Positions 22,017 to 41,419 of a stretch of 44,476 nucleotides of DNA are shown one piece after another (the stretch's first letter is position 1; every line of letters starts with the position of its first letter). Below the pieces are notes generated by a model, which saw only the letters and a list, made by a program, of their open reading frames with translations, was not told the DNA's origin and did no database searches. The translations under genes were made by a program, and so were the position numbers. The stretch is taken from the sequence record DRR378314_2555. One strand, written 5' to 3'.

Positions 22017-25000
22017 ATATAACTTTTTTGTTTTATTCACAGTGGTTCTCTTGGGTTGTGGGCCTAGGGAAGGTGAAGTTTTCAGGAACCCATCGCCAAG
22101 TGAAACGGGGATTAACTTTCAGAATACCGTTACGGAGTCGGATGATCTGAATATTCTTGACTATCTATATTTTTACAATGGTGGCGGAGTAGCCATTGGG
22201 GATATTAATGGGGACGGACTGCCCGATGTTTTTCTTTCCGGAAACCAAGTAAAAAATAGATTGTACCTCAATGAGGGGAACCTAAAGTTTCGGGATATTA
22301 CGGACAAAGCGGGTATAGCTGGGGACAGTACCTGGAATACGGGGGCCATTATGGGGGATATTAATGGGGACGGACTCCTGGATATCTACGTCTGCGCCGT
22401 TGTGGGTATTAATGGCTTTAACGGACACAACGAGCTGTATATTAACAATGGGGATAATACCTTTACGGAAAGTGCAGCCGAATTTGGACTCGATTTTGAT
22501 ACTTACAGCAGTTCCGCCGCCTTATTGGATTATGATTTGGATGGGGATTTGGATATGTATCTGCTCAATCATGCCGTACATACCCAGGAATCTTATGGGA
22601 AGGCCGAAGTACGGCAAAAGAGAAATGCCCAATCAGGGGACAGGCTGTTGCGCAATGATGGGGGTATTTTTGTAGATGTTAGCGAGGAAGCTGGCATATA
22701 CGGTGGTGCCAATGGATACGGACTGGGCATTGCCATAGCCGATTTTAATCAGGATGGATATCCGGATATCTATGTTGGGAACGATTTTCACGAGGACGAT
22801 TATTATTACATCAACAACGGTAATGGCACATTTTCCGAACAATTGCGGAGCTATTTTGGACATACTACCAAATTTTCAATGGGGAATGACGTAGCCGATA
22901 TTAACCATGATGGTTGGCCAGATATTATTTCTTTGGACATGCTCCCTGAAGATGAAAAGGTCCTAAAGTCATCTGAGGGGGACGACCTTACCCAAACCCA
23001 GATTCTAAGGGTATCCCGTTTTGGGTACCATTACCAATATTCCAGGAATATGCTGTTTGTAAACCAGCAAAATGCGCCCTATTCCGAAACGGCAATACAA
23101 AGCGGAATTGCAGCGACCGATTGGAGTTGGAGTGCACTTTTTGGGGATTATGACCAAGATGGGGAACAGGATATCTTTATTTCCAATGGGATTCCCAAAA
23201 GGCCCAACGACCTCGACTTTATAAAATTCGCCTCGGACGAACAAATAAAAAACAAGCTTAACAATACCAAACTTGTAGACCAACAAGCCATTAATATGAT
23301 GCCGTCCGGGGTGACGCATAATTATGTTTTTAAAGGCGGGGAGGATATGAAGTATCAGGATATGTCCGGCATATGGACCGCAAAGGACACCCTGATTTCC
23401 GGGGCTACGGCCATGGCAGATTTGGACAATGATGGTGATCTGGACCTTATAACCAATACCCTTAACAGTCCAGCGGCATTGTATATCAATAAAACGGACA
23501 CCAAAGCCAATTATTTAAAACTCAGGTTTAATTATAAGGAAAAGAATAAATTAGGTATAGGCACCAAAGTTTTTGCCTATATAAATGGGCAGTTGCATTA
23601 CAGGGAATTGTATACCGTTAGGGGGTTCCAGGCCTCTTCCGAACCTATGGTCCATTTTGGTTTTGGAAAACAGGAGAAGATAGACTCCATAAAAATTGTT
23701 TGGCCCAATAAGACCTTTCAGGTCATAAAAGAAGTGGCTACCAATCAAACCTTGGTTATTTCCCCGGAAAATACAAAACCCTTCAATTATAATTCGCTAT
23801 CGCCTACTTCCAAAAAGATGTTCCATAAGGTTACAGGTAATTTGGGAATCAATTTTGAGCATGTGGAGGACAATTATCTGGATATCAACAGACAAAAATT
23901 GATCCCCTATCAAATATCGGATCGTGGTCCGGCATTGGCCTTTGGGGATTTGAACGGGGATGGAAAAAAAGATTTGTTCTTTGGAGGTTCCAAATACATT
24001 CCGTCCAGAATATTTTTACAAGGGGATACTACCTATCTGGAAAAGCGAATAGATAATATTGCGAACGATTCCATAAAGGAGGATATTACGGCCCTAATAG
24101 CGGACCTCAACAAAGACGGGATGGCCGATCTGGTTGTAGGTACCGGAGGGGGGGATTTTTATAACGAAATGCCTCCCTTAACAGATAGTTATTACCTTCA
24201 AAATAGTACAGGCTTTGAAGCTGCTGTTCTGCCGGAATATTTTGAAAATGCAGCTGTAATTAGGGAAAGTGATTTTGACAATGATGGGGACTTGGATTTA
24301 TTTATAGGCAATAACGCCATAACCAACGATTTTGGAAATATCCCCAATTCCTTTTTGCTAAGAAACAACCAAGGTCGGTTCACTGTTGTAGAAAACAAGG
24401 AACTGCAAAAGCTGGGAATGGTCACGGATGCAGTCTGGACAGATTTTGATAATGATGGCGTGTTGGATTTAATAGTGGTAGGGGAGTGGATGACGCCAAA
24501 ATTCTTTAAGAACAATAAGGGGCAATTGATAGAAACTTCACCTTTGGACCGCCCTTATAACGGACTCTGGGAATGCATTATCCCATTTGATATGGACAAG
24601 GACGGGGACTTGGATTACCTACTGGGAAATTGGGGAGGCAATACCAAATTTAAAGCATCGGATAAATATCCAATGAAAATGTTTTATTCGGATTTTGACC
24701 AGAACGGAAGTACGGAGACTGTAGTGGCTATTGAAAAAAATGGCCAATATTATCCTTTGGAAGGGTTGGATGAACTATCGGCGCAAATGGTTGGCCTTAG
24801 AAAGAAATTTTTGACCTATAAGTCCTTTGCCGGAAAATCCATAGAAGGGGTTCTAGATGAAAATGCCCTTAAAAATAGTACCGTTCTAGAAGTAAATACC
24901 CTAGAATCTGGTTATTTGGAGAATAATGATGGGAAATATTCATTTGTTCCCTTTAAATCGGAATTACAGGTTGCCCCAATAAGGGCATTTGTAGAGTATG

Positions 25001-25257
25001 ACTTTGATAAGGACGGGAATACGGAAATCCTGGCAGCAGGTAACTATTTTGGGATTAAGCCATATCACGGCAGGTTGGATTCCTTCTCAGGAGCACTGAT
25101 AAAGGATAAAAATGATGTAATTTTGGGGAACAAATTAGGACTGGAGCTGGAACTTAAGTCTGTTAGACATTTGAAGATGATAGATTTAAAAGGTAAGACC
25201 TATCTCTTGGTTACCTTTAATGATGATAAGGCTCAGGTTTATGACTTGGGCGATTAA
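22009..25257 (+). CDS. FG-GAP/VCBS-repeat ASPIC/UnbV (CRTAC1-like) lipoprotein 2
   Basis: Paralogue of the upstream gene (FYNGGGVAIGDIN.DGLPD, TDWSW, RGFQ.S); ATG at 22009 gives MSRYNFF...LLGC lipobox and an 8-nt overlap. Confidence 0.85.
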   Translation: MSRYNFFVLFTVVLLGCGPREGEVFRNPSPSETGINFQNTVTESDDLNILDYLYFYNGGGVAIGDINGDGLPDVFLSGNQVKNRLYLNEGNLKFRDITDKAGIAGDSTWNTGAIMGDINGDGLLDIYVCAVVGINGFNGHNELYINNGDNTFTESAAEFGLDFDTYSSSAALLDYDLDGDLDMYLLNHAVHTQESYGKAEVRQKRNAQSGDRLLRNDGGIFVDVSEEAGIYGGANGYGLGIAIADFNQDGYPDIYVGNDFHEDDYYYINNGNGTFSEQLRSYFGHTTKFSMGNDVADINHDGWPDIISLDMLPEDEKVLKSSEGDDLTQTQILRVSRFGYHYQYSRNMLFVNQQNAPYSETAIQSGIAATDWSWSALFGDYDQDGEQDIFISNGIPKRPNDLDFIKFASDEQIKNKLNNTKLVDQQAINMMPSGVTHNYVFKGGEDMKYQDMSGIWTAKDTLISGATAMADLDNDGDLDLITNTLNSPAALYINKTDTKANYLKLRFNYKEKNKLGIGTKVFAYINGQLHYRELYTVRGFQASSEPMVHFGFGKQEKIDSIKIVWPNKTFQVIKEVATNQTLVISPENTKPFNYNSLSPTSKKMFHKVTGNLGINFEHVEDNYLDINRQKLIPYQISDRGPALAFGDLNGDGKKDLFFGGSKYIPSRIFLQGDTTYLEKRIDNIANDSIKEDITALIADLNKDGMADLVVGTGGGDFYNEMPPLTDSYYLQNSTGFEAAVLPEYFENAAVIRESDFDNDGDLDLFIGNNAITNDFGNIPNSFLLRNNQGRFTVVENKELQKLGMVTDAVWTDFDNDGVLDLIVVGEWMTPKFFKNNKGQLIETSPLDRPYNGLWECIIPFDMDKDGDLDYLLGNWGGNTKFKASDKYPMKMFYSDFDQNGSTETVVAIEKNGQYYPLEGLDELSAQMVGLRKKFLTYKSFAGKSIEGVLDENALKNSTVLEVNTLESGYLENNDGKYSFVPFKSELQVAPIRAFVEYDFDKDGNTEILAAGNYFGIKPYHGRLDSFSGALIKDKNDVILGNKLGLELELKSVRHLKMIDLKGKTYLLVTFNDDKAQVYDLGD

Positions 25258-25295
25258 GGGAGATCTAATATTATTATTTGGACAAAAAGATTAAG

Positions 25296-26642
25296 ATGAA
25301 ACTATATTTAAGATTATTTGTATTATTTGCGGTTGTAATATCATGCAACAAAAAGGAAGAGCCTATAATTATAACTTCCCAGGATCTCCATAGGTCTATC
25401 CATAAGGTCACGGAAGTTATGATCCATGATATTTTTTCACCCCCAGTGGCCAGTAGAATTTTTGCTTATCCCAATATAGCGGCATATGAAATTGTGGCCC
25501 TTAACAATAGTGATTACAAATCGTTGGTAGGGCAGGTAACAGATTTGACCCCTATTCCTGTTCCAGTGGAGGATAAACCTGTCAATTATCAAATGGCGGC
25601 CCTAATTGCGCATATGGAATTAAGTAAGCGTTTAATTTTTTCTGAGGATAAAATTGAGGTACATCGCGATAGTTTATATACCAATTGGCAGGAAAAAAAC
25701 TTGACCATCTTTAAGAACTCTGAGGAATATGGTCTGGCCGTGGCAAAACATATAGGGGATTGGTTGGACAAGGACAATTACAAGCAGACTAGGACTATGC
25801 CCAAGTTTACCATTAACACGGACGATGATTCGCGTTGGCAACCCACCCCACCGGCTTATATGGACGGTATAGAGCCTCATTGGAGTAAAATAAGGCCGTT
25901 TGTTATTGACTCGGCAAATCAATTTGTACCAGCACCACCACCGGCATTTTCTATGGATAAAGGATCCGACTTTTACAGGGAAGTAAAAGAGGTATACGAT
26001 ATTAGTAAAGAGATTACTGCCAAAGGGGATAGTTCGGAAGAGATAGCTATTGCAAAATTCTGGGATTGTAACCCCTATGTCTCCGTAACCAGGGGGCATT
26101 TAATGTTCGCAACAAAGAAGATTACACCAGGGGCCCATTGGATTGGGATTACCAAAATTGCCTGCGAAAAAACAAACTCGGATTTTGATAAAACCGTATT
26201 TGCCTATACCAAAACCTCAATGGCAATAGCCGATGCCTTTATAAGTTGTTGGGACGAAAAATACCGCTCTAATTTAATACGTCCGGAAACTGTAATAAAT
26301 CAGTATATAGACGAAAACTGGGCACCTGTGCTTCAAACGCCGCCATTTCCTGAGTACACCAGCGGACACTCCGTGGTTTCTGGTGCGGCAGCTACGGCCT
26401 TGACCAGTATTTTTGGGGATAATTTTGCATTTGATGACGATACCGAAATACCTTTTGGTCTACCTATAAGAAGTTTCACCTCTTTTAATCAGGCTGCAGA
26501 TGAAGCTGCCATTAGTAGAATGTACGGGGGCATACATTATAGGGCCGCAGTGGAAGTCGGGGTAGGACAAGGCAGGAGTTTGGGCAAATTTATTGTGGAT
26601 AAACTGGAAATGAACGGGAATCAGGAACTGGTGTCCAAGTAA
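25296..26642 (+). CDS. Vanadium-dependent haloperoxidase lipoprotein (Zobellia VIPO-like iodoperoxidase)
   Basis: Vanadate-binding motifs CWDEKYRSNLIRP, PPFPEYTSGH, SRMYGGIH and WDCNPY; lipobox VISC. ATG at 25296. Confidence 0.88.
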   Translation: MKLYLRLFVLFAVVISCNKKEEPIIITSQDLHRSIHKVTEVMIHDIFSPPVASRIFAYPNIAAYEIVALNNSDYKSLVGQVTDLTPIPVPVEDKPVNYQMAALIAHMELSKRLIFSEDKIEVHRDSLYTNWQEKNLTIFKNSEEYGLAVAKHIGDWLDKDNYKQTRTMPKFTINTDDDSRWQPTPPAYMDGIEPHWSKIRPFVIDSANQFVPAPPPAFSMDKGSDFYREVKEVYDISKEITAKGDSSEEIAIAKFWDCNPYVSVTRGHLMFATKKITPGAHWIGITKIACEKTNSDFDKTVFAYTKTSMAIADAFISCWDEKYRSNLIRPETVINQYIDENWAPVLQTPPFPEYTSGHSVVSGAAATALTSIFGDNFAFDDDTEIPFGLPIRSFTSFNQAADEAAISRMYGGIHYRAAVEVGVGQGRSLGKFIVDKLEMNGNQELVSK

Positions 26643-27678: not shown

Positions 27679-28539
27679 ATGAAAAAATACTTGTTATTGC
27701 TGCTTTGGGGAACAATAATCAGCTGTGCCAGTAATTATGGACAACTGACCTATGTTACCAAACTTCCCCATAAATTGACCGAGAATTCAGGAATGGTCCC
27801 TGGCAAGGACTCAACGGTTTGGTTCGTTATGGATAGAGGTAATCCCGATAAAATTTATCAGGTGAATTATAAAGGTGACTTAGTAAAGGAATTAAAAGTA
27901 AAGAATGCCAAAAACCATGATTGGGAAGATATGGCAAAAGATGAAAATGGTAATGTTTTTATTGGGGATTTTGGCAATAACGGCAACGACAGAAAGAATT
28001 TGGCCATCTATAAAATTCCCGATCCCAATGAAGAAAATGGGGATGATATTAAGGCGGAAAAGATTGAATTTAATTACCCTGAGCAGAAAGATTTTCCTCC
28101 TAAAAAGAATAAACTGCTATATGATGCAGAGGCATTTTTTTACTACCGGAACAATTTCTACATCATCACCAAAAACAGGACCCAGCCATTTAACGGGGAA
28201 GCCTTATTGTACAAAGTGCCTGCTTTAGAGGGCAAGCACAAAGCCCAATATTTGGGTTCCTTTATTCCTCCGAAAGGAAAGAGGAATAGGCAAATAACCT
28301 CTGCCGATATATCTCCTGATGGTAAGACTATAGTGCTGTTGGGCAATGGTACATTATGGGTGTTTACGAATTTTGTAATGGACAATTTTATTTCCAGTGG
28401 GACACTAAAAACGATAGATCTGGGCGTATATACACAATTGGAATCCGTTTCCTTTACCAATAACAATACCTTATTGCTATCGGACGAGGAGTCTGCGAAA
28501 ACGGGAAGAAATCTATATTCTTTTGTGTTGGGCAACTAA
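27679..28539 (+). CDS. Conserved lipoprotein, probable beta-propeller (SdiA-regulated/phytase-like)
   Basis: Lipobox IISC; repeated blade motifs ENSG, DWEDMA, IGDFGNN, YDAEA, ITSADIS, QLES. Confidence 0.6.
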   Translation: MKKYLLLLLWGTIISCASNYGQLTYVTKLPHKLTENSGMVPGKDSTVWFVMDRGNPDKIYQVNYKGDLVKELKVKNAKNHDWEDMAKDENGNVFIGDFGNNGNDRKNLAIYKIPDPNEENGDDIKAEKIEFNYPEQKDFPPKKNKLLYDAEAFFYYRNNFYIITKNRTQPFNGEALLYKVPALEGKHKAQYLGSFIPPKGKRNRQITSADISPDGKTIVLLGNGTLWVFTNFVMDNFISSGTLKTIDLGVYTQLESVSFTNNNTLLLSDEESAKTGRNLYSFVLGN

Positions 28540-28568
28540 CCCGAAATCAAAAAATCTACCGTTCTAAA

Positions 28569-31500
28569 TTAAAAGCCAAAACCAATACCGAAGGAAAATC
28601 TTGGCCCATCAACACTGTTGAACAAGGCTACCCTCGCCGTCATCACATCCGCTCCATTAAGAAAAATTCCTCCTCCGTAGGAGGTGTGCCATAGATCGGA
28701 ATTTTCGTTGGGAGTCCAGACCCTTCCGTAGTCAAAACCGCCATATACTCCCACGGTAACGGGCAATAATCCTGTTTTTAGACTTTTAAGACTGTATCTA
28801 AGGTCTGTATTCTGGTAATAACTGCTCTTACCGGAAAATCGTTGGTTTCTAAAACCTCTAAGTCCATCTATCCCACCTATACTGGCTGCCTGGTAAAATT
28901 CGTAGTCGTCCCCTAAATTAAAATGGGCCTTCCATTTGGAGGCAAGGACCAATCTACCATTGGATACTAATTTATGATCCAAGGAAAGACTGGGAACTAT
29001 ATAGGCATAGGCCTGACCCTGGTTCTCCACACTGGCCTTGTAGCCCAAGAGCAGTCCAGTTGTCATTCCCATAGTAGGGAAAGCGGCATTGTCCAAATTT
29101 TCATAGGTGTATTCCGCATCAACTCCTATAAAACTGTTCCTGTTCTCCTCCCCGTTGGCCAGATAAAAGGTGTTCACGAACCTGTCTTCGGTTTCTTCCA
29201 CTTCCAGACTTTCAAGAGAAATTCCAGTTCTGAATTTTGCCCCCAGCTGTCCACGCCAAATCAAGGAAGGAGAAAAACTTAAGTTTTGAATTTTTACCCT
29301 ATTGTAATCCATCTCCAAAGTATCGTCGAAATTTTCGGTCTCATTTCCGATTCCAAAAAAGTTAACGCTAAAATTGGGGCTTGTAAAGCGGGCGGCCAGT
29401 TCCAAATTCCAGTTTTCTAATATATGGGCAAACTCTCCTTTATAGCCCAACTCAAAGCCATTGGTGGCAAAATAATAGGCGGCATTGTAACTGTGTTGGG
29501 TAGTATAAGGGTTTTGTCGTAGTCCATAAAAGGTATTTGAGGCATTAAAACCAAGCTTCATACCATCATCGGGATTGAATCCGATGGTCGGGATTATCTG
29601 GCGTGTGCTAGTCCTAAGTTTAAGTGGCTGATAAGTGTTGGTCTCGTAATCGTTGGTAAGTCGCAGCTTTGCTCCCTTGATTTCTTTGAAGGTGTTTTTT
29701 TTGGATCTATGGTCATAAATCCAAGTATTGCTGCCTTCAGATATGTCATAAACATCATTGTTTTGTCCGCCGATAAGCCTAATTTTTATTTTGTTCCCCT
29801 TACCGCCTTCGACTTCGAAGATGTCATCATCGTCCAAACCATAGATCCAAATTTCCTTGGTTATATTGTGGTTGAATTTCTTTTGAAAAAAAAGCTTTTC
29901 CTTTTTTCCGTCTATTTTTCTATAAGCTTTGATTTCCACTTCTTGCTCGGCCAAATTGTTAATTTCGAACCAATCATCCTTATCGGTACCTTTTATGACA
30001 ACATACTGGTTGAGTGCCAAAAAGTAGTCCTCGGCAATTTTGGGAAGGTTGTTGATCCGGGATAGAAGTATGCTCTTTAAGCTAAGGATATTTTCGTCCA
30101 AAATCTCTTGGGGAAAGGCTTTAAATGCTGCGTCTATTACCGCTGGGGTTAGGTTTTGCTGTATATATTGTACTTCCTTCTCCCAATCGGCTTTTGTGGT
30201 TTCGGCCAATAAGGTTACATCCAGCCCATAGGCACTCTTGTTAAATGCTTCCACATTTCTAATGTCATTATTAAATCCTTCCATCATTTGAAGGGCAGGA
30301 ATTATTCTTGTTGCAATCCCCATCAGCGCCCCATCTCCCCAAATGGAATACACCTGATCCCGATCTCTTGGGATGGCCTCAAAAACAATCTTTCCTGTTT
30401 CCTTATCCTTCACTTCCCCCCAGCGCCATTGGTCGTCGTGCCTATCCCAATCGCCCATGACCATATCAAATAATCGGGTCCTTAAGTATCTGTCCGTATT
30501 GACTACATATTTTTCGTCCCGTTTAATTTTATCGATCATGTCCCAAGTACTTTCAATTTTATCGGCATATCCGAAACTGCCCAATTCCCCATGACCGTCG
30601 CCCACCTGTTCTTCCAAAATATAAAGCTCATCCCCAAATTCCCCATTAAATTCTGCTAAGGCAGATTGCTTTGGGATATAGTATAATTTAGGGTTGGTAT
30701 GGTAGAGGTCAATGGCGTCCGAAAGAGTTCCCACTGTAAGAAGGCCGTACGGTAGTGCCCCGGTATAAAAGTCCATTAAAAGTTTCTCGGTATAGGTATC
30801 CTTAAATTCTCCCAAAACGTATTTATCCTTAAAGGCCATGGCCTGTAGATATACTTCCGCACTTTTTTTAACTGCCCTAATTACGTATTCCTTTCCATTT
30901 TTATCTGACAATCTCAGGGATTTGGATTGGTTGCCACCGCCTTTACGGACAGGTTTTAAACCGCCAAACAAAGTATCCAGTCTAAGGGTAGGGGCGTTTA
31001 CTTCCATGGCGTAGTACTTCCTATACCTTTCGCCCCAAATAGTTTTGAAAAACTTACTTTTTTCAATGTCTTCCTTAGAGTAAACAGACGCTTTTACCTC
31101 CCTTGGAAAATCATTGCCGTTAAATATGTAATTTTCGTTTCTATCTGGAGGCAGTACCTGTGTAGAAAACAGAAGGTCGGGATCATTATTTTCCCCAACA
31201 CCGAAATATCTTACTTCGGAGGAACCATCTTTGTATACTTTTAATTCTGCAAAACCCATTCTTCCAGTAGAGAATTTAGAGCCGTTCAATAGCCTTGTGG
31301 CCCCTTCCTTGGCCCCGGAACCACTAACGATCTGGGGGGTATTGTCCTCCACAATATATTGAAGGGTATGTTCATGGCCCGAAGTCAAGATAACTTTCTG
31401 CGAATACTGGGCCAAGGTTACCAGACGATTCCTTAATTCCGTATATCTTTTATTCTGGAGATCGGCATAGGAGGCTCCGCTTGTTTTTCTGATAAGGTTT

Positions 31501-32276
31501 ACAAAAGAACCTAAAACGGGGAAGGGAAATTTGCCGCCTGCAGGGTTTAGATGAAGCTTTGCCGAATACTGTCCGCCGTGTGGCCCGTAACTGAACATGG
31601 GGTGGTGTATGGCCAATATGGTAGTCCGGTCCCGGTTTTTTTTGATAAGGCTTTCCAATTCCTCAAAGAAGGTTTCACGGTCCTTTATTTCGCATTTATC
31701 GTTCATCTTGGGGTGTTTGTCCCAATTGGTCAAGTACCATTCAGAATCAATGGCGATAAGCACTATTTTATCGTTGATATCTATTTTCTCTATCGGGCAG
31801 CCATCTTCGGGAAAAAAGACTTCTTTGCTATCTAATTTTTTTTGGATGTATTTTTGCTGTCTTTCAAGTCCTTCCAGACCTTCATTGTACCAATCATGGT
31901 TTCCAGGAATAAATATGGGATTGCCCTTGAATTGGGACAGGGTCTTCAGTTGGGCATCCAAGTTGTTTTTAGCTTCCAGATAGGCTTGGGTGGAATCCTT
32001 TTTGTTGGGCATTCCGGCAGGGTAGATATTATCGCCCAAAAATAGGGCAGTACTATTTTTGCCGGCTTTTCCCAAGGCCTTTTGGAAAGCCTTCAGTGCT
32101 TCACTTTGATCGTTCATTGGAGATTTGCCCGCATCCCCTATAAAATAAAAAGTGTGCAATAATTCACTGTTGCCTGATATGTTCCCAACGGTGGAACTCT
32201 CCACATATTTCGTTTTATATGTGGCACAGCCTACCAATAGAAAAAGTATTATTATAAGTAGGTAATGTTTCCTCAT
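28569..32276 (-). CDS. Metallophosphoesterase / kinase-like / Omp85-type beta-barrel fusion lipoprotein
   Basis: Lipobox LVGC; GDAG, GDNIY, GNHDW, HHP, GHEH; central GGGNQSKSLRL...GDWDRHDDQW...RDRDQ; C-terminal LRGF barrel motif and terminal GFGF. ATG at 32276 preferred. Confidence 0.8.
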   Translation of the reverse strand: MRKHYLLIIILFLLVGCATYKTKYVESSTVGNISGNSELLHTFYFIGDAGKSPMNDQSEALKAFQKALGKAGKNSTALFLGDNIYPAGMPNKKDSTQAYLEAKNNLDAQLKTLSQFKGNPIFIPGNHDWYNEGLEGLERQQKYIQKKLDSKEVFFPEDGCPIEKIDINDKIVLIAIDSEWYLTNWDKHPKMNDKCEIKDRETFFEELESLIKKNRDRTTILAIHHPMFSYGPHGGQYSAKLHLNPAGGKFPFPVLGSFVNLIRKTSGASYADLQNKRYTELRNRLVTLAQYSQKVILTSGHEHTLQYIVEDNTPQIVSGSGAKEGATRLLNGSKFSTGRMGFAELKVYKDGSSEVRYFGVGENNDPDLLFSTQVLPPDRNENYIFNGNDFPREVKASVYSKEDIEKSKFFKTIWGERYRKYYAMEVNAPTLRLDTLFGGLKPVRKGGGNQSKSLRLSDKNGKEYVIRAVKKSAEVYLQAMAFKDKYVLGEFKDTYTEKLLMDFYTGALPYGLLTVGTLSDAIDLYHTNPKLYYIPKQSALAEFNGEFGDELYILEEQVGDGHGELGSFGYADKIESTWDMIDKIKRDEKYVVNTDRYLRTRLFDMVMGDWDRHDDQWRWGEVKDKETGKIVFEAIPRDRDQVYSIWGDGALMGIATRIIPALQMMEGFNNDIRNVEAFNKSAYGLDVTLLAETTKADWEKEVQYIQQNLTPAVIDAAFKAFPQEILDENILSLKSILLSRINNLPKIAEDYFLALNQYVVIKGTDKDDWFEINNLAEQEVEIKAYRKIDGKKEKLFFQKKFNHNITKEIWIYGLDDDDIFEVEGGKGNKIKIRLIGGQNNDVYDISEGSNTWIYDHRSKKNTFKEIKGAKLRLTNDYETNTYQPLKLRTSTRQIIPTIGFNPDDGMKLGFNASNTFYGLRQNPYTTQHSYNAAYYFATNGFELGYKGEFAHILENWNLELAARFTSPNFSVNFFGIGNETENFDDTLEMDYNRVKIQNLSFSPSLIWRGQLGAKFRTGISLESLEVEETEDRFVNTFYLANGEENRNSFIGVDAEYTYENLDNAAFPTMGMTTGLLLGYKASVENQGQAYAYIVPSLSLDHKLVSNGRLVLASKWKAHFNLGDDYEFYQAASIGGIDGLRGFRNQRFSGKSSYYQNTDLRYSLKSLKTGLLPVTVGVYGGFDYGRVWTPNENSDLWHTSYGGGIFLNGADVMTARVALFNSVDGPRFSFGIGFGF

Positions 32277-32330
32277 GTACATCTGTTTAGAAATCAAAAT
32301 TTTGTAATTTGTGGGTCATAATTAACTCTT

Positions 32331-33521
32331 ATGTCGGAAATCCTCGAAAAAACTGAAAATTTTGTTGTTGATTTATTGTCTACTAAGCTAGACTCCAGTT
32401 ATTTATATCACAATTTAAGCCATACGCAACGGGTTGTTAAAAGTACTAAAGAATTATTGAACTTCTATGATTTGGGAGAGAAGGAAAACGAAATAGCGCT
32501 ATTGGCGGCTTGGTTGCATGATACTGGATATACAGAAGGTTCGGAGAATCACGAAGAGACCAGTTGTGATATAACACGCGAATTTTTAGGTAGGCAGGAA
32601 TACGATAAACAAAAAGTAGATCGTGTATGTAGCCTCATTATGGCCACCAAAAGGTTCTATGAGCCCCAAAACCTCTTGGAAGAAATTATCAGGGACGCTG
32701 ATTGCTCCCATTTCGGAAAGAAGAGTTATTTGGAAACTGCTGAACTACTTAGGGAAGAGTTGGATATTTTAGGATTGGCAACCTATACACAAAAGGAATG
32801 GCGGGAGGCCAACCTCAAGATGTTTCAAACGGAACAGCGTTTTTATACTGATTATGCCCTCCAAAATTGGCAGGAAGAAAAGAATAAAAATATAAGAAGG
32901 CTTATTAAGGGAAAAAAAGCGGAGGAAAATTTAGTGAAGAAGGAAAAGTTAAAGGCCAAATACAAGAGCGAAAGTCCGGATAGGGGTATACAGACCTTGT
33001 TTCGGGTGACTCTAAAAAATCATTTAATGCTCAGTGATATTGCTGATACCAAGGCTAATATCCTGCTCTCGGTTAATGCGATTATTATATCTTTGGTGTT
33101 GTCCAACCTTATGACCAAACTGGACAATCCGTCCAACAATTACTTAATCTATCCCACCTTGTTATTTGTTGTTTTTAGTGTAGTGTCAATGGTACTTGCC
33201 GTTCTTGCAACAAGACCAAATGTTACCCAGGGCGAGTTTACCAAGGAGGATGTAAAGCAACGCAAGGTAAACTTGTTGTTTTTTGGCAATTTTCACAAAA
33301 TGAAATTGGAGGACTATCAATGGGCTATAAACGAATTGGTACAGGACAAGGATTATATTTATTCCTCACTGACCAAGGATTTATATTATCTTGGATTGGT
33401 ATTGAACAGGAAGTATAAAATACTGCGTTGGACCTATACTATTTTTATTATAGGAATGATTGTTTCTGTAATTGCCTTTGTCGTATCCTTTAAGTATTTT
33501 GGTCCGGATCGCGGTTTATGA
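32331..33521 (+). CDS. HD-domain phosphohydrolase fused to a Pycsar-type transmembrane effector domain (PycTM/DUF5706)
   Basis: YHNLSH, LHD, HEE.S and RDAD HD motifs; C-terminal ADTKANILL, three hydrophobic helices, LFFGNF and RKY..LR..Y. Confidence 0.82.
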   Translation: MSEILEKTENFVVDLLSTKLDSSYLYHNLSHTQRVVKSTKELLNFYDLGEKENEIALLAAWLHDTGYTEGSENHEETSCDITREFLGRQEYDKQKVDRVCSLIMATKRFYEPQNLLEEIIRDADCSHFGKKSYLETAELLREELDILGLATYTQKEWREANLKMFQTEQRFYTDYALQNWQEEKNKNIRRLIKGKKAEENLVKKEKLKAKYKSESPDRGIQTLFRVTLKNHLMLSDIADTKANILLSVNAIIISLVLSNLMTKLDNPSNNYLIYPTLLFVVFSVVSMVLAVLATRPNVTQGEFTKEDVKQRKVNLLFFGNFHKMKLEDYQWAINELVQDKDYIYSSLTKDLYYLGLVLNRKYKILRWTYTIFIIGMIVSVIAFVVSFKYFGPDRGL

Positions 33522-33527
33522 CCAATG

Positions 33528-35897
33528 TTATTTGTTCAATTCCAGCATTAAGTCCTCGTAGGTATAGGTCTTGCCTTTTTCTTTGTGGGATTTGTATAAA
33601 ATGGAAGCTCTTATGGCCTTTAGGCCGGAAACCCCTTGGAGTCCTTCCAATTCAACAATTTCTACCTTGCCGCTGAAATAACCTTTGGACTTAAGGAACC
33701 TAATATATCGCAAGTATTCCAGCTCATCCTTTTTTTGTGAATAGACAATGGCTATTTTACCGGCTTGGGTCAATCTTTCATTGGTGCCTTTAATATAGGA
33801 TTTATCGATTCGTTTTTTTATAATCTCATACCTGGCATTGTAGGTGCCGTCAACATCAAAACGTTTTTCATCCATCCTGAATCGAATGGATAAAGAGCCG
33901 TTATAGACTAGAATAAGTGATGCCACATTTAATTGTACCTGCAACTTGGATTTAAGGTCGTAATGCTTATTTTCCATTTCGCAGATAACCTGTAACTGCC
34001 ACAACCTAAGGTTGTTAAGGTAAAGTGGGTCAAAGGCCCTTGATCCTGTTATGGAATCCCCTATGTACATGTTGTGCTCTACACCATCGGTCTTGTAACG
34101 CTCAAAATAATGTGGGTACATTTGCTGTGCCTCTTCCTGCTTGCTGTCGATTACAGATGCCAACTTTTTGTTGATCAGCATTACGCTTTGGTCATAATTT
34201 TTTCTATGATCATAGTAGGAACCTGTTCCCTTATCTATTTTGGTCTCATAGGAAAGCAATAGATTTTGAATGTGGGTATCGGATTTTTTGATATGGGCGA
34301 ACACTGGGTTTATTTCTTCTTGTACAAAATCGAAAATGGCCTGTTCGCTATTGGTATGTAAGACATCTTTTATCTCATCAAGGTGATTGTCTACCCTGAA
34401 TATAAGTTCTTCGTAAATTGGCAAACCATATTTTTGCCAAACCTCGGTCATTATTTGTTTAATTTCGGACAACTGGATCATAAGATCCCTTTGGATTGCC
34501 ATATTTCTTTCCTGGGAGGAATTCTGGATATCTACCTGTCCGTATAAGGGATATACTTCATCAAAAACAATTTCGCGGAAAGAGGGTTGCAGGCCTTCCA
34601 TGTCATCCAATATGAAGCGCTTTGCCTCTTCCTTAAATTTCCAGTAAACCGAAGGGTGCACAGAAGTACATTCGTTTTGAATAACCGCATCGATCAAATT
34701 TTCCTCCTCTTGTAATGAACGTAATACCGCAGAAACGATATAGGGAATTACATCGTCCAATTTCGTGGCATTTACGCTGTTCAGGTCATTGGCCTTATCA
34801 GAGACCAGCTCCAATACCCCCAGTAACTGCCCATCTTTGGCAATGGGAGATAAAAGGGCACTTTTAATTTTTTGATCGTGCAAACATTTATATGGAGGCA
34901 TACCATTTGAAAGCTTGTAATACTTGTCTACATCACTTATTACAAAACAGTGGTTTTGATCAATTAATTTACTATATGAGGACTTGCAAAGGGCCTCATT
35001 ACAAGTTTCAACTTGCTTCTCTTGTAAAATAAAACTATTTATTCCATTTACTGAAACCCTCTCAAATTGTTCTTCTTTTGAATTGTAGACCGAGAAGCCA
35101 ATACGCATATTTGGCAAGCCAAATAAAGACTTAAAGGTCTCTTCCACCCCTTTAATGAAATTACCCCCACTTTTATCATTAATGATCAAGTTGGATTTTA
35201 TTTCGGAGATAGAATGCTCCGCAGTAACATCGAACATATTCGAGATTACAAAACCTTTGCTCATAAAACTATTGGGCGGTATCTTTTGTTTCCAAAGATC
35301 CACATTGTCTATATTTTCCAATAACTTGTCTACGTCTTCCTGGGTAATTTCCAATGGGGTCCCATTGGGAAGGATTTCTATAAAATCGGCATTGTACAAA
35401 ATGCGGTAATGTCTCATTACGCCATTGGCATCCGGGATATCGTAGAAAAATGGTCTCTTGAAATCTAAGTTGAATCCGTAATAAAAGTTAAGGATGACTA
35501 CACAGGCCATGATATAATTCACCTCTTCTTCTTGGTTCCTGATTTTCGGTAGATAATTTGGTCCGGCAGCTGCCAATATTTTTTCAAAGCGCTTACTGGA
35601 ATTAAATATGATGTCCGTATATGGAGAGGAAGCTGTTTTTATTTCGTTGGTGGTAAGTACGGACGAAAACAAATCCTGTAAAATTATTTGAATTACGTCC
35701 TTATATTTTTCCAACAGGGTGATGTCTTTGAAACCATCACGCAATTCCGGATATGGAGCTTGGGCATTCAAAATATATCGTGCCTTGGTGGCCAAAAACG
35801 AATCCTCGCTTTCTGCCATTTCATCGTACTGCTTCAATAATTTATTAAAGCTTAAATGATGTTCCAATGGTGATATTTTTTCAGATAATCCCTTCAT
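33528..35897 (-). CDS. GAF-domain protein with a putative divergent class III nucleotidyl-cyclase C-terminal domain
   Basis: GAF signature KSALLSPIAKDGQLLGVLELVS. The cyclase call is my manual motif alignment (see findings); the CDS itself is secure. Confidence 0.75.
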   Translation of the reverse strand: MKGLSEKISPLEHHLSFNKLLKQYDEMAESEDSFLATKARYILNAQAPYPELRDGFKDITLLEKYKDVIQIILQDLFSSVLTTNEIKTASSPYTDIIFNSSKRFEKILAAAGPNYLPKIRNQEEEVNYIMACVVILNFYYGFNLDFKRPFFYDIPDANGVMRHYRILYNADFIEILPNGTPLEITQEDVDKLLENIDNVDLWKQKIPPNSFMSKGFVISNMFDVTAEHSISEIKSNLIINDKSGGNFIKGVEETFKSLFGLPNMRIGFSVYNSKEEQFERVSVNGINSFILQEKQVETCNEALCKSSYSKLIDQNHCFVISDVDKYYKLSNGMPPYKCLHDQKIKSALLSPIAKDGQLLGVLELVSDKANDLNSVNATKLDDVIPYIVSAVLRSLQEEENLIDAVIQNECTSVHPSVYWKFKEEAKRFILDDMEGLQPSFREIVFDEVYPLYGQVDIQNSSQERNMAIQRDLMIQLSEIKQIMTEVWQKYGLPIYEELIFRVDNHLDEIKDVLHTNSEQAIFDFVQEEINPVFAHIKKSDTHIQNLLLSYETKIDKGTGSYYDHRKNYDQSVMLINKKLASVIDSKQEEAQQMYPHYFERYKTDGVEHNMYIGDSITGSRAFDPLYLNNLRLWQLQVICEMENKHYDLKSKLQVQLNVASLILVYNGSLSIRFRMDEKRFDVDGTYNARYEIIKKRIDKSYIKGTNERLTQAGKIAIVYSQKKDELEYLRYIRFLKSKGYFSGKVEIVELEGLQGVSGLKAIRASILYKSHKEKGKTYTYEDLMLELNK

Positions 35898-35987
35898 TAC
35901 TCACCTTAGTCCTTGTTAAGGGCGTAAAGTTACAAAAGAAAATGCTTTTTTTCATTTTTTCGACACTTATGGAATATCCTTCTTTTT

Positions 35988-36017
35988 TTTGGATATTTAT
36001 CCTTTCAAGTACATTTG
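35988..36017 (+). promoter_or_regulatory. Bacteroidota housekeeping-sigma promoter
   Basis: TTTG (35988-35991), 18-nt spacer, TACATTTG (36010-36017), upstream of the CDS at 36106. Confidence 0.55.
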
Positions 36018-36105
36018 GAATAAATGTATGGGTAATTTGTTGATGTTGTTCAGAGTATTCCTCATGTCCCAACACATATTAGTATGAACTATTAACCTAA
36101 AAGAA

Positions 36106-37008
36106 ATGACCTCATCTGCCAGATTGTCCAGGGCTTATAAAAATGCTAAAATCCTGCCTTTTGACGATAGCTCCAAAATTATTCTTTTCAGTGACTGCCA
36201 TAGGGGAGATAGTAGTTTTGCGGACGAATTTGCCAATAACCGCAATATATATTTTCATGCCCTAAGGCATTACTTTAAAGAAGGCTTTATGTACTGTGAA
36301 TTGGGGGACGGGGATGAACTTTGGGAAAATATCAACTTTGATTCCATTTTTACTGCACACAAGAACGTTTATAAGCTTTTAAAGCAATTTCATCTAGAAA
36401 AAAGACTCCATATGATTTGGGGGAACCATGACATGGTTTATAAAGATCCATTGTATGTAAAAAAGAATCTATCATCCTATTTTGAGCCTATTGATAATTG
36501 CAATAAAGAATTGTTTGAAGACATCAACTATCACGAAGCTATAATTTTAAAACATAACGATAGTGGTCAAGAGTTGTTTTTGACCCATGGGCACCAGGCA
36601 GATTGGTGGAACTATACTTTTTGGCGCTGGGGCAGGTTCTTGGTGCGTGTTTTATGGAAGCCATTGCAAGTATGGGGTATTGCCGATCCTACAAGTCCCG
36701 CAAAAAATTACAAGGAGCTTATTAAAATTGAAAGGCGCATAAAAAAATGGATTTTGGCCAACAATGAAATGCTGACGATTGCGGGCCATACCCATAGGCC
36801 CCGATTTCCTGCTCCCGGGGAAATTCCATTTTTCAATGACGGTAGCTGTGTTCATCCGCGGAGTATTACCGGGCTGGAGATCCAAAAGGGAACCATTTCC
36901 CTAATAAAATGGGAAATAGCTACAAAGGACGATGGCACCCTTCAGATTGTTAGGATATTACTGGACGGGCCTCAACAACTTAGCAGTTATAAGAGGGCCA
37001 AATCCTAG
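36106..37008 (+). CDS. Cytoplasmic calcineurin-like metallophosphoesterase (LpxH-like motif spacing)
   Basis: SDCH, GDGDELW, GNHD, THGH, GHTH and NDGS motifs; no signal peptide. Confidence 0.85.
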   Translation: MTSSARLSRAYKNAKILPFDDSSKIILFSDCHRGDSSFADEFANNRNIYFHALRHYFKEGFMYCELGDGDELWENINFDSIFTAHKNVYKLLKQFHLEKRLHMIWGNHDMVYKDPLYVKKNLSSYFEPIDNCNKELFEDINYHEAIILKHNDSGQELFLTHGHQADWWNYTFWRWGRFLVRVLWKPLQVWGIADPTSPAKNYKELIKIERRIKKWILANNEMLTIAGHTHRPRFPAPGEIPFFNDGSCVHPRSITGLEIQKGTISLIKWEIATKDDGTLQIVRILLDGPQQLSSYKRAKS

Positions 37009-37989: not shown

Positions 37990-38527
37990 TTGAAAAAGTA
38001 CCGTATCAAGTTGTTTTGGGTTGTTCTGGGGTTGGCACTTTTGTCGTGCAAGGGTGAGAAAAAACTAGGTCCTGTAAAAGATGTTGATACCCAACTGGGA
38101 CTTTATCAGGAAACCCACCGCCCACAATTTCATTTTAGCCCACCGGAAAATTGATGAACGATCCCAATGGTTTGGTCTATTACCTAGGGGTGTACCATCT
38201 GTTTTATCAATATTACCCAGAGGATATCGTATGGGGGCCCAACAATTTATTTTGGATAGGTCACTTTCGGGGAAAACTTCCTTTGATGTGGATTTTGTTA
38301 AAAATATTCAGGCTATGCCCATCCCCGATTTGCCCAATAGAGAATATGAAGTACGGATAGTGATGGATTGGTCCTCTGTGGAGATTTTTATTAATCGTGG
38401 GCAATACGTGATGACCTGCCAGTTCTTTCCCAACGAATTTTACCGGACCTTATTGATTTCAAATCCAGGGGAAATGGAATTGAAATTGAAAGAATTTTCT
38501 ATAAGCCCCATAAAATCTATTTGGTAA
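37990..38527 (+). pseudogene. GH32 levanase/invertase pseudogene (frameshift plus large internal deletion)
   Basis: Lipobox LLSC and RPQFHFSP, then AAT-TG-ATG-AAC-GAT-CCC-AAT-GGT (WMNDPNG lacking one G at about 38153), YHLFYQY...WGP, then a jump at about 38240 into the GH32 C-terminal domain (LDRS.SG...DWSSVEIFIN). Confidence 0.85.
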
Positions 38528-38571: not shown

Positions 38572-39597
38572 ATGAAACGTCGATTATTTTTTAAGAATGC
38601 AGCCACAGCATCAATAGGGTTGGGGCTTACCAAGTATTCGTCAAAGGATAAGCCTGTGCAGCCCTTCGAAAAAGGCATCCCATTTTGTGTTACTGTTTCG
38701 GAAAACAAGCTTCAATTTTTTTCAGAGGCTATCAAGGAATCTATAAAGATTGTTCATATAGCGGACACCCACCTCTTTATGGACGACGAGCGTGGTGTTC
38801 CGTATGCCATGTACAGTGGACGTATGGCCAAGGCCTACAATCAGACCAAACATTTTAAAACTGGAGAAGCTACCAACCCGGAACTGGCATTCGCAGGAGC
38901 TTTGGATTTCGCCAAAGAATCCAAGGCGGATTTGATCACTTTAATTGGAGATATTTTTAGTTTTCCATCGGAAGCTGCCGTTGAATGGGTGCTGGCCAAA
39001 TTAAAAGAAGTGGATATCCCCTATATTTATGTCGCTGGCAATCACGATTGGCATTATGAGGGCATGGAGGGAACACTGGAAGATTTGAGGGACAAATGGA
39101 TCAAGGAAAGATTGCTTCCCTTATATCAAGGTAAACATCCGTTAATGGCGGCATACGATTTAAAAGGAATACGATTCTTGGCGATCGACAATTCCACCTA
39201 TCAGATAAATAAGGAGCAGTTGGACTTTTTTAAAGAACAGGTTTCCAGCGAGGTACCACTAGTGCTTTTGGTGCATATACCAATGTACGCCCCAGGGAAA
39301 TCTATTTCCTTCGGATGCGGCAATCCTGATTGGGGGGCTTCTTCCGATCAGAATTTTGAGTTGGAAAGACGATTAAAATGGCCAGAAGCAGGTCATTCGG
39401 AAACTACCTTCGATTTTCATAGGGCAGTCTTTTCCGCTCCAAATCTATTGTGTGTATTTGCAGGTCATATCCATCGTTTTTCAGTGGAATCGATTAAAGG
39501 AAAACCGCAAATAGTAACCGATGATAATGCCAGTGGAGGTTTTTTGGATGTCGATTTTTTACCCTTGGAAAACAAGGACAAATCCCTAATTTTTTAG
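38572..39597 (+). CDS. Metallophosphoesterase (Icc/CpdA-like) with possible Tat signal
   Basis: MKRRLFFK; HIADTH, LIGDI, AGNHD, IDNS...EQLDFF, LVHIP and AGHIH motifs. Confidence 0.8.
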   Translation: MKRRLFFKNAATASIGLGLTKYSSKDKPVQPFEKGIPFCVTVSENKLQFFSEAIKESIKIVHIADTHLFMDDERGVPYAMYSGRMAKAYNQTKHFKTGEATNPELAFAGALDFAKESKADLITLIGDIFSFPSEAAVEWVLAKLKEVDIPYIYVAGNHDWHYEGMEGTLEDLRDKWIKERLLPLYQGKHPLMAAYDLKGIRFLAIDNSTYQINKEQLDFFKEQVSSEVPLVLLVHIPMYAPGKSISFGCGNPDWGASSDQNFELERRLKWPEAGHSETTFDFHRAVFSAPNLLCVFAGHIHRFSVESIKGKPQIVTDDNASGGFLDVDFLPLENKDKSLIF

Positions 39598-39697: not shown

Positions 39698-41380
39698 ATG
39701 AAATTAATTTGGTGTTTGTTATTGAGTTTTGTGACCATGGTAGTTAATGGTCAGACCAAAAAGTATGATATTGTTATATATGGGGGTACTTCTGCCGGGG
39801 TATCCGCTGCCATACAAAGTAGTAGAATGGGCAAGTCCGTTGTGCTCATAGAGCCAACCAATCGCATTGGCGGACTTACCACCGGAGGCCTGGGCCAGAC
39901 CGATATTGGGAACAAACAGGCCATTGGCGGGATTTCCAGAGAGTTCTATGAGAATATCAAAAAATATTACGACGATCCTGAAAATTGGAAATGGGAGAAA
40001 AGATCTGATTATAAGGATGGGGGCCAAACCCGTACCGAGGAAGGAGAAGCTACCATGTGGACCTTTGAGCCCTCCGCTGCCCTTGCCGTCTATAAGTCCA
40101 TGATAGACAAGGAGAAAATTAAGATGGTCTACAACGAAAGGCTCAACAGGGAAACCGGGGTCAAAAAAGTAGCTGGTAAGATAGAGTCGATCACCATGGA
40201 AAGTGGTAAGATTTTTAAAGGCAAGGTATTTCTGGATGCCACCTATGAAGGGGATCTGATGGCCTCGGCCGGGGTTTCCTATGCCGTGGGCAGGGAAAGC
40301 AACGAAGAGTATGGGGAAACCTTGAACGGGGTACAGGCCAATAGCATAAATACCTCCTTGGCTGGCCTTGTTTCCAGAAATGCGTTCAACCACAACTTTA
40401 TCCCAGGGGTAGATCCATACGTTGTAAAAGGGGACCCCATATCCGGACTCCTGCCAAATGTTAACGAAAAGCCGGGCCTAGAGGGGGAAGGCGATAAGAA
40501 AATACAGGCCTACTGTTTTAGGATGTGTCTTACGGATCACCCTGAAAACCGTATACCTTTCCAGAAACCGGCAAATTATGACGAGGTAAATTATGAACTT
40601 CTTTTCCGTAATTACGAAGCCAGAAAGGGGCCCATAAGGGAGATGTACAGCTATGGCAATTCATTATTGCCCTGGATCAATTCCAGTATGCCCAATAGAA
40701 AAACGGATACGAACAACAAGTTCGGCTTTTCTACCGACTATATTGGCAGGAACTATGATTATCCTGAGGCCAGCTATGCGGAAAGGGAAAGGATCATCGA
40801 GGACCATAGGAACTACCAGATGGGACTTATGTGGACCCTGGCCAATCATCCAAGGATACCTGCCGAGGTCAGGGAGGAGGCATCCAGATGGGGTACTACC
40901 AAGGACGAATTTGAAAGGGCCGATGGTTGGCAGCAACAGCTTTATGTCCGTGAGGCAAGGAGGATGGTCAGCGATTATGTTATGACCCAGAAAAACTGCG
41001 AGGCATTAACGGTGGCAGAGGATGCCATTGGTCTGGCCGCCTACGGTATGGATTCGCACAACGTACAACGATATGTGGATGCCAATGGATATGTCCAAAA
41101 TGAGGGCAATGTGGAGGCCCATGGTTTTAAGCCCTATCCCATTAGTTATGGAGCATTGGTACCCAAAAAGGAGGAATGCAACAATCTTATTGTCCCTGTC
41201 TGTGTAAGTTCCACGCACATTGCCTTTGGATCTATCCGTATGGAGCCCGTATTTATGGTCCTGGGGCAATCAGCGGCCACGGCGGCAGTACTTGCCATAG
41301 ATGCCAATGTTAGTGTTCAGGAAGTGCCTTACCCTAATTTAAAGGAGCAACTTCTAAAAGATCGTCAAAGGCTAAAATAA
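39698..41380 (+). CDS. Exported FAD-dependent oxidoreductase (FAD_oxidored family), paralogue 1
   Basis: Signal peptide; [39 protein letters not shown] and [11 protein letters not shown] motifs. Confidence 0.85.
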
Positions 41381-41419
41381 ATTATAATTTTCTTAGATCA
41401 AATTTAACTACCAAACAGA

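Follow-up and report, generated by a model that had tools for sequence, protein, structure and literature searches.

Why is a PycTM-type membrane protein, a kind that to our knowledge is known only as a suicide effector of phage defence, encoded among envelope and phosphate enzymes in Bacteroidota? The question is raised by positions 27,679 to 37,008 of a 44,476-nucleotide stretch of sequence record DRR378314_2555 (the window), where five genes, here termed A to E, are tightly packed. B, C and D, together with A and probably E, form one vertically inherited Bacteroidota envelope module around the HD-PycTM protein C. Its genes belong to the everyday, inherited repertoire of marine Bacteroidota and probably act as an undescribed signalling circuit, not as a phage defence system. 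The reading favoured here, at a probability of roughly 0.55, is that the circuit runs on a cyclic nucleotide and that D is its likely writer in this lineage.

A module built around an HD-PycTM protein

The five genes are arranged as follows (aa, amino acids).

Gene A, 27679-28539, + strand: 286-aa lipoprotein, beta-propeller-like (SdiA-regulated/phytase-like family); accessory module member.
Gene B, 28569-32297, - strand: 1242-aa outer-membrane lipoprotein with a metallophosphoesterase, a middle domain and an Omp85/BamA-like barrel.
Gene C, 32331-33521, + strand: 396-aa inner-membrane protein, a cytoplasmic HD domain fused to a PycTM-type membrane domain.
Gene D, 33528-35897, - strand: 789-aa cytoplasmic protein with an N-terminal domain, a GAF domain and a highly conserved C-terminal domain.
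Gene E, 36106-37008, + strand: 300-aa cytoplasmic metallophosphoesterase; looser module member.

A first-pass annotation of the window had proposed the same five open reading frames (ORFs), and all of them were recovered. They alternate in orientation (A> <B C> <D E>), which makes a single transcript impossible. A and B converge across 29 base pairs (bp), C and D converge across 6 bp, as had been claimed, and D and E diverge across 208 bp. For the divergent pair B and C, the annotated gap of 54 bp holds from the second ATG of C, and the TTG start of C gives 33 bp.

The annotation of C as a fusion of HD and PycTM domains is well supported. Pfam assigns HD to residues 1-195 (E 2.3e-8) and PycTM (PF18967, pJV1-SpdB3 family) to residues ~225-390 (E 3.7e-38). 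The C-terminal half also matches the PADLOC models of PycTM and of the CBASS '2TM' effector, with a best E of 4.7e-20 (PycTM), and the protein has three hydrophobic/transmembrane segments. A PDB profile search with the HD half finds 2pq7 at 8e-8, as well as 3djb and 3gw7, and all 29 sequences compared retain the metal-binding residues of this domain (H27, H31, H63, D64, H74 and D122). According to selected passages of two sources, the PycTM/PucTM family is activated by cyclic nucleoside monophosphates (cNMP) in defence systems (PMC11224242) and forms a hexameric membrane cylinder (preprint 10.64898/2026.08.12.744502).

Co-inheritance in Flavobacteriaceae

The proteins most similar to those of the window bear names that point to an Arenibacter-like flavobacterium as its source. 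Gene content was compared in 121 Flavobacteriaceae genomes, two from the window's genus and one from each of 119 other genera. D and full-length C are present in the identical 88 genomes, with no discordant case. In 76 of the 88 the two genes are no more than 300 bp apart (convergent in 73, co-directional in 3), in 84 the distance is at most 5 kb, and the median gap is 35 bp. B was found in 90 of the 121 genomes. Every one of the 88 with C and D is among them, and in those where D has relocated (G056, G117 and G089) B is still next to C. The first-pass annotation had listed a lack of co-conservation among the things that would refute it, and this shared, nearly always adjacent occurrence passes that test. 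Among the 20 D-less genomes listed, 15 are 2.7 Mb or smaller.

The homologues of C and D stand at 40-74% identity across the 88 genomes. In 32 loci, pairwise distances correlate at r 0.94 between D and C, at 0.89 between D and B and at 0.90 for the third pair of these proteins, and the tree of C follows taxonomy. The correlated distances and the taxonomic tree fit vertical inheritance.

Operons, a domain fusion and class III cyclases in other lineages

The comparison was extended to 40 loci cut around D homologues, 80 more with distant D homologues, and a further 20 around C in Bacteroidota genomes without an adjacent D. Similar neighbourhoods had been anticipated elsewhere in Bacteroidota, and in other orders of the class the module genes do recur together as single-strand operons, with A represented by a counterpart termed A2. 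L038 reads C-A2-B-D on one strand, its genes separated by 9, 17 and 5 bp. In L036 and L037 the order is C-PPK1-A2-B-D, the polyphosphate kinase PPK1 carrying four PPK domains (E about 1e-66), L035 has a 359-aa metallophosphoesterase inserted in the operon, and L096 reads D-CYC-A2-B-C, CYC being a class III cyclase. Among the 80 further loci, C, A2 and B are again beside D in Chitinophagaceae, Reichenbachiella (with PPK1), a Bacteroidales metagenome-assembled genome and Flavobacteriaceae. They are not beside D in Pontibacter, Ignavibacteria or any non-Bacteroidota phylum among these loci, where D sits among unrelated housekeeping genes.

The HD domain is found on either of two proteins. A cluster of 968-974-aa proteins (e.g. 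P0134) consists of D with a C-terminal HD domain; this domain and the HD half of C from the window share 36% identity over 188 residues (E 2e-34). In L183 (Flavobacterium G515), the D-HD gene is followed 4 bp later on the same strand by a stand-alone PycTM protein (208 aa), then by B and then by PPK1; this genome also carries a second, canonical copy of the module elsewhere. The D-HD fusion next to a separate PycTM indicates that the HD domain can belong to C or D, and there is strong evidence that D, the HD domain and the PycTM domain work as one unit.

These arrangements bear on the view that the adjacency is no more than inherited gene order, with five genes doing unrelated jobs. Such a view draws on the alternating orientation in the window, which excludes a single transcript, and on the absence of A and E from many loci. 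It does not account for the exact match of C and D in presence and absence, the movement of the HD domain between them, the paralogous B+C pairs that also occur in Flavobacteriaceae genomes, or the re-assembly of the same genes in different arrangements, as single-strand operons in other orders. A lack of functional coupling is considered highly unlikely.

A true class III cyclase lies inside the module in 8 of the 20 loci taken around C (L172-L177, L168 and L179). L172-L177 contain an E-like phosphoesterase, A2, a B without the phosphatase domain, and the cyclase; in L173-L177 these form the operon E>A2>B>CYC, opened by 357-aa E-like genes. The hidden Markov model (HMM) scan detected C in five of L172-L177, L174 being the exception, and in these five the cyclase converges on C and so takes the position that D has in the window. 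L168 and L179 combine the module with both the cyclase and PPK1. The five module-linked cyclases that were scanned match PF00211 at E 2e-11 to 2e-17 as well as PADLOC PycC models, and module-linked cyclases have 3-6 N-terminal hydrophobic segments. On Fulvitalea axinellae pFA2, the NCBI annotation has this same arrangement, listing a metallophosphoesterase, a hypothetical protein, a 'Pycsar system effector family protein' and an 'adenylate/guanylate cyclase domain-containing protein'. A cyclase next to HD-PycTM is a recurrent, inherited pairing. Its presence in sister lineages makes the cyclic-nucleotide logic that had been proposed for the window plausible.

A role in phage defence is improbable

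A Pycsar- or Pucsar-like anti-phage system, in which a cyclase would detect infection and PycTM would serve as the lethal effector, is an alternative that takes its force from the PycTM domain on C. NCBI names homologues 'Pycsar system effector family protein', and the cyclases adjoining C elsewhere match PADLOC PycC models. In the window itself, PADLOC matches only C and no other gene of the locus, and none of the five genes matches PF00211 or the PADLOC PycC model.

Nor is the distribution the patchy, mobile one of genes kept in defence islands. Sampled at the level of genera, C and D share 88 of 121 genomes at 40-74% identity, with distances that track each other and taxonomy. The flanks are sugar-use and other housekeeping genes, and the conserved partners are envelope and phosphate enzymes. 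Full-length C homologues are found on 3 of 72,556 plasmid records, all of them large, non-mobilizable Bacteroidota replicons, and on 0 of 50,697 phage records. The first-pass annotation had kept a regulated defence system in view; given vertical inheritance, C as the sole PADLOC match and near absence from plasmids and phages, such a role is unlikely, and infection-triggered killing in the manner of Pycsar or Pucsar is extremely improbable. The physiological phosphate or envelope circuit that the annotation had offered as its other option is in keeping with the gene context, with vertical inheritance and with the linkage to polyphosphate kinase.

The function of D

D comprises an N-terminal domain without a known family (residues 1-230), a GAF domain (~230-400) and a conserved C-terminal domain (~430-770). 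The GAF domain had been called in the first-pass annotation. The window protein alone does not carry this call, as it matches no Pfam family at E <= 0.01 and GAF only at E 0.16-0.18; the homologues do (36-37 of 63 match GAF in Pfam at E <= 0.01 and 52 of 63 at E <= 10), as does the family profile, which finds GAF structures in the PDB at E 6e-4 and, weakly, the cGMP phosphodiesterase GAF 2xss at E 0.064. The C-terminal domain is the most conserved part of the protein, with a mean column identity of up to 0.79; D456, S460, D604, G605, G684, K694, R696, K699 and R708 are invariant in 63 D sequences. Searches of the ESM Atlas with the whole of D returned only its own family (GAF, with PF27174 'YeeD' on 14-28% of members), and the C-terminal part alone gave no usable match. 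No fused form of D of 1382 aa or more was found, and the shorter D matches are contig-end fragments. In three metagenome-derived loci (L055, L056 and L097) the D homologue is read as two ORFs of about 300 and about 460 aa. Judged by sequence, D is a candidate for a hidden nucleotide cyclase or another phosphoryl enzyme.

The module's genomes give reason to look for such a cyclase. No PF00211 match exists anywhere in 26 of the 88 module-bearing Flavobacteriaceae genomes, including the complete genomes G046, G068, G134, G154 and G155. Each of these five has 4-17 matches to cNMP_binding (PF00027), that is, readers without an obvious writer. The nearest genome has two PF00211 genes, both away from the module. 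An alignment of D with the cyclases, not significant in itself, is collinear over four cyclase motifs: D456-I-R-x-S-S falls on DIxGFT, K602-T-D-G on KTIGD, F-D-V-D-G-x-Y-N-x-R-x-E on YDxWGxxVNxAxRxE, and QPGKIAIV on xPGKIxVS. The residues that this non-significant alignment offers for the two metal-binding Asp (D456, D604/E607), the base-specifying Lys/Asp pair (K602, D681) and the transition-state Asn-Arg pair (N687, R689) are present in 55-63 of 63 sequences, at a non-canonical spacing. About 110 residues are inserted after the first of the cyclase-like motifs; removing them in hhalign gives a full-length collinear alignment that is still not significant.

A series of results weighs against a cyclase in D. 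PF00211 (Guanylate_cyc) is matched by 0 of 63 D homologues in Pfam even at E <= 10, and the PADLOC PycC models do not match D. With hhalign, D against 28 class III domains and 9 module-linked cyclases reaches a probability below 1% and E 0.2-0.4, and reversed controls score as high. An hmmsearch of 184 D homologues against the cyclase with filters off gave at best 2.8 bits, compared with 3.3 bits for reversed decoys. The cyclase-like motifs claimed in the first-pass annotation thus gain no statistical support from Pfam, PADLOC, hhalign or HMMER, and its view of D as the writer is not supported, since no sequence method detects a cyclase. A CYTH/triphosphate-tunnel fold for the C-terminus of D is conceivable; the Pfam scan of the D homologues at E <= 10 showed no CYTH match. 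The five PF00211-free complete genomes each encode one small CYTH protein, possibly another cyclase. D and a class III cyclase are found together in one operon in L096 and at one locus in L041, so D is not simply a stand-in for the cyclase. The HMM scan found D alone, without C or B, in 58 of 121 loci, including other phyla and Hymenobacteraceae, which implies a role for D that does not depend on them. Since cyclic nucleotides are among the ligands of GAF domains, D might be a reader instead of a writer.

The same module could operate on phosphate, polyphosphate or envelope phosphoesters with a D that is not a cyclase, being instead a GAF-gated regulator, or an enzyme of another chemistry, whose target or partner is the HD domain of C, by analogy with GAF-regulated HD-type phosphodiesterases. 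Any cyclic nucleotide would then be the product of other genes, or Flavobacteriaceae would use none. The fusion of D to HD in P0134 and L183, the coexistence of D with a true cyclase in L096 and L041, and the lack of significant cyclase similarity all speak for this alternative. So do the PPK1 genes in the clusters of eight loci, the SixA-like histidine phosphatase adjoining PPK1, and the frequency of phosphatases around the module (the purple-acid-phosphatase-like domain of B, E and PAP2). It leaves unexplained why true cyclases recur within the module, and what would gate the PycTM-type domain in the 26 genomes that carry the module but lack PF00211. Moreover, the best-conserved part of D is its C-terminal domain with invariant Asp, Lys and Arg, which looks catalytic, not regulatory. 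This alternative is possible without being probable.

The reading of D as the candidate cyclic-nucleotide writer in this lineage is put forward as the favoured one. In its most far-reaching form, D would be the founder of a profile-invisible, GAF-gated nucleotide-cyclase family of Bacteroidota and several other phyla, widespread there and feeding, in Flavobacteriaceae, a housekeeping relative of the Pycsar effectors. This relative, an HD-tipped three-helix membrane assembly, would with B control phosphate or polyphosphate traffic across the envelope. This proposal is tentative. If true, the new family would be the missing writer for the many flavobacterial cNMP-binding-domain proteins without a class III cyclase.

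Envelope and phosphate partners

B had been annotated as a phosphoesterase/kinase-like/Omp85 fusion, of which both ends are upheld. Its N-terminus matches Pfam Metallophos (6.5e-11) and, by PDB profile, the purple-acid-phosphatase-like 1war (1.6e-11). Its C-terminus matches Pfam ShlB/Omp85 (2.7e-6) and, by PDB profile, BamA chains (4e-3), and the barrel scores 2e-17 against NCBIfam Omp85_fam, below the curated cut-off. The Pfam scan found no POTRA domain in B. The protein has a lipoprotein signal with the lipobox LVGC. The middle domain (residues ~410-900) carries the conserved motifs GGGxQSKSLRL and GDWDRHxDQWRW, picked by eye from the alignment; no Pfam or PDB sequence match covers this region, and its kinase-like character lacks statistical support.

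Additional paralogues of B occur in many flavobacteria. They match it over residues ~267-1242 only and thus lack the phosphatase domain (e.g. G082:C1:439458-442364 and G065:C1:1758799-1761708). Two or three full copies of B stand in tandem in G141, G057, G047, G115 and G137.

For A, the predicted lipoprotein character stands, with a lipobox in LLLLLWGTIISC. The predicted propeller is sub-threshold in the window protein (SdiA-regulated/propeller, E 0.0011, 18.7 bits against a Pfam cut-off of 21 bits). The A2 counterparts in other orders pass the Pfam SdiA-regulated and Phytase-like models (E 9e-9 and 7e-10), and an HMM of A also detects A2 proteins. The cluster of A is found in 15 of 41 loci.

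E matches Pfam Metallophos (2e-5) and Metallophos_2 (5.3e-6) and has no signal peptide, in agreement with its annotation as a cytoplasmic metallophosphoesterase. Members of its cluster adjoin D in 11 of 41 loci. Neither A nor E found a match among PDB sequences. E may act as an eraser in the module.

A phosphatase two genes upstream of A may also belong to the set:

PAP2-family phosphatase, 454 aa, 25278-26642, + strand: Pfam PAP2 2.9e-12; possible further member, unproven.

Of 41 loci, 8 have its cluster in this position, and some Hymenobacteraceae-like loci (L041, L085, L090 and L107) carry smaller PAP2 genes in the vicinity of D.

PPK1 is part of the cluster in L036, L037, L086, L163, L165, L168, L179 and L183. 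In loci from two Bacteroidota families, a SixA-like histidine phosphatase (His_Phos_1) of 165 aa lies between HD-PycTM and PPK1 (L163:10239-10739 and L168:8413-8910).

Proposed circuit

The observations are the set of genes and its joint inheritance, the operon arrangements, the domain fusion and true cyclases in the sister modules; from them we infer a messenger, a catalytic activity for D, a direction of signalling and a physiological output. A cyclic mononucleotide would be synthesised in the cytoplasm, in some lineages by the module-encoded membrane class III cyclase; in Flavobacteriaceae the maker would most likely be the C-terminal domain of D, under the control of its GAF sensor. The signal would be read by the three-helix PycTM-type domain of C, a domain that in defence systems is a nucleotide-triggered membrane assembly. 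The HD domain, located on C or in some genomes on D, may hydrolyse the signal or a related phosphoester and so reset the system. The output would be coupled across the envelope to B, with its outer-membrane phosphatase, middle domain and barrel, and to the propeller lipoprotein A.

This output may concern the handling of phosphate, polyphosphate or envelope phosphoesters, as the recurrent linkage to polyphosphate kinase suggests. Here the case is weakened by its source, which is solely the company that the genes keep, and by the fact that PPK1 is clustered in only a minority of loci and lies on another contig in the nearest genome.

In this large phylum the PycTM membrane module belongs to the inherited core genes, and it is linked to an HD hydrolase, a sensor, outer-membrane phosphatases and often a polyphosphate kinase. 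If the circuit uses a cyclic nucleotide, it would reveal a housekeeping ancestor or sibling of the defence system and a physiological role for cyclic nucleotides in Bacteroidota, and it might expose a cyclase family missed by current profiles. It would also point to an unstudied link from cytoplasmic signalling to outer-membrane phosphate chemistry in abundant marine polysaccharide degraders.

Surroundings of the module

The window flanks consist of housekeeping genes: glycerol, starch/maltose and SusC/SusD genes, FG-GAP proteins and the PAP2 phosphatase. The G+C content is even across the region. A promoter and terminator scan gave counts no different from those of shuffled sequence. Metatranscriptome contigs from two studies match parts of B, C, D and E at at least 99% identity, although DNA carry-over is possible and neither level nor strand can be read from contigs.

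Among the other ORFs of the window, a third metallophosphoesterase (341 aa) lies at 38572-39597. Two tandem FG-GAP/ASPIC (UnbV) proteins of ~1100 aa and two tandem FAD_oxidored proteins are encoded at 18663-25257 and 39698-43096, respectively. Two ORFs look truncated or mis-started: a 148-aa ORF at 38081-38527, whose match to glycoside hydrolase family 32 is confined to the C-terminal part, and a LacI-type ORF at 10337-11026, which aligns to its profile only from position 50.

Comparison with known systems

The literature search, judged from listings and selected passages, returned no published description of an HD-PycTM/B/D module. The systems closest to B are Omp85 proteins of the PlpD type (type Vd) and, in Bacteroidetes/Chlorobi, the Omp85 proteins that are lipoproteins (Heinz and Lithgow 2014, PMC4104836). 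With an enzyme domain joined to a C-terminal barrel of the Omp85/BamA kind, B resembles the passenger-and-barrel layout of PlpD, and as a lipoprotein it resembles the lipidated Omp85 subfamily. It departs from PlpD in its passenger, a purple-acid-phosphatase-like metallophosphoesterase with a large extra domain instead of a patatin. In addition, POTRA is not detected in B, and the phosphatase is a separate gene in some lineages.

Enzymes of cyclic-nucleotide metabolism that are regulated by GAF domains include the cyanobacterial CyaB1-type GAF-cyclases and the GAF-containing HD-fold phosphodiesterases such as PDE2/5/10. D shares with them a GAF domain ahead of a conserved, enzyme-like C-terminal domain, and the D-HD fusion (P0134, L183) shares the GAF-then-HD order of the phosphodiesterases. 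Unlike these enzymes, D has a C-terminal domain that matches neither PF00211 nor any PDB sequence, ~390 residues between GAF and the fused HD, and an extra 230-residue N-terminal domain.

With Pycsar and Pucsar, the module shares the PycTM family membership of the C-terminal half of C. It also shares, in sister lineages, a PycC-matching class III cyclase adjoining C, so that the logic of a writer and a membrane reader is plausible. The selected passages of PMC11224242 and of preprint 10.64898/2026.08.12.744502 do not mention an HD fusion, GAF or Bacteroidota for these systems. In contrast to Pycsar and Pucsar, the effector C carries an N-terminal HD hydrolase, and its partner in the window is a GAF protein without a detectable cyclase domain. 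The C/D pair is convergent, vertically inherited, core-like and almost absent from plasmids and phages; linked with it are an outer-membrane phosphatase-barrel protein, a propeller lipoprotein and, in many cases, PPK1.

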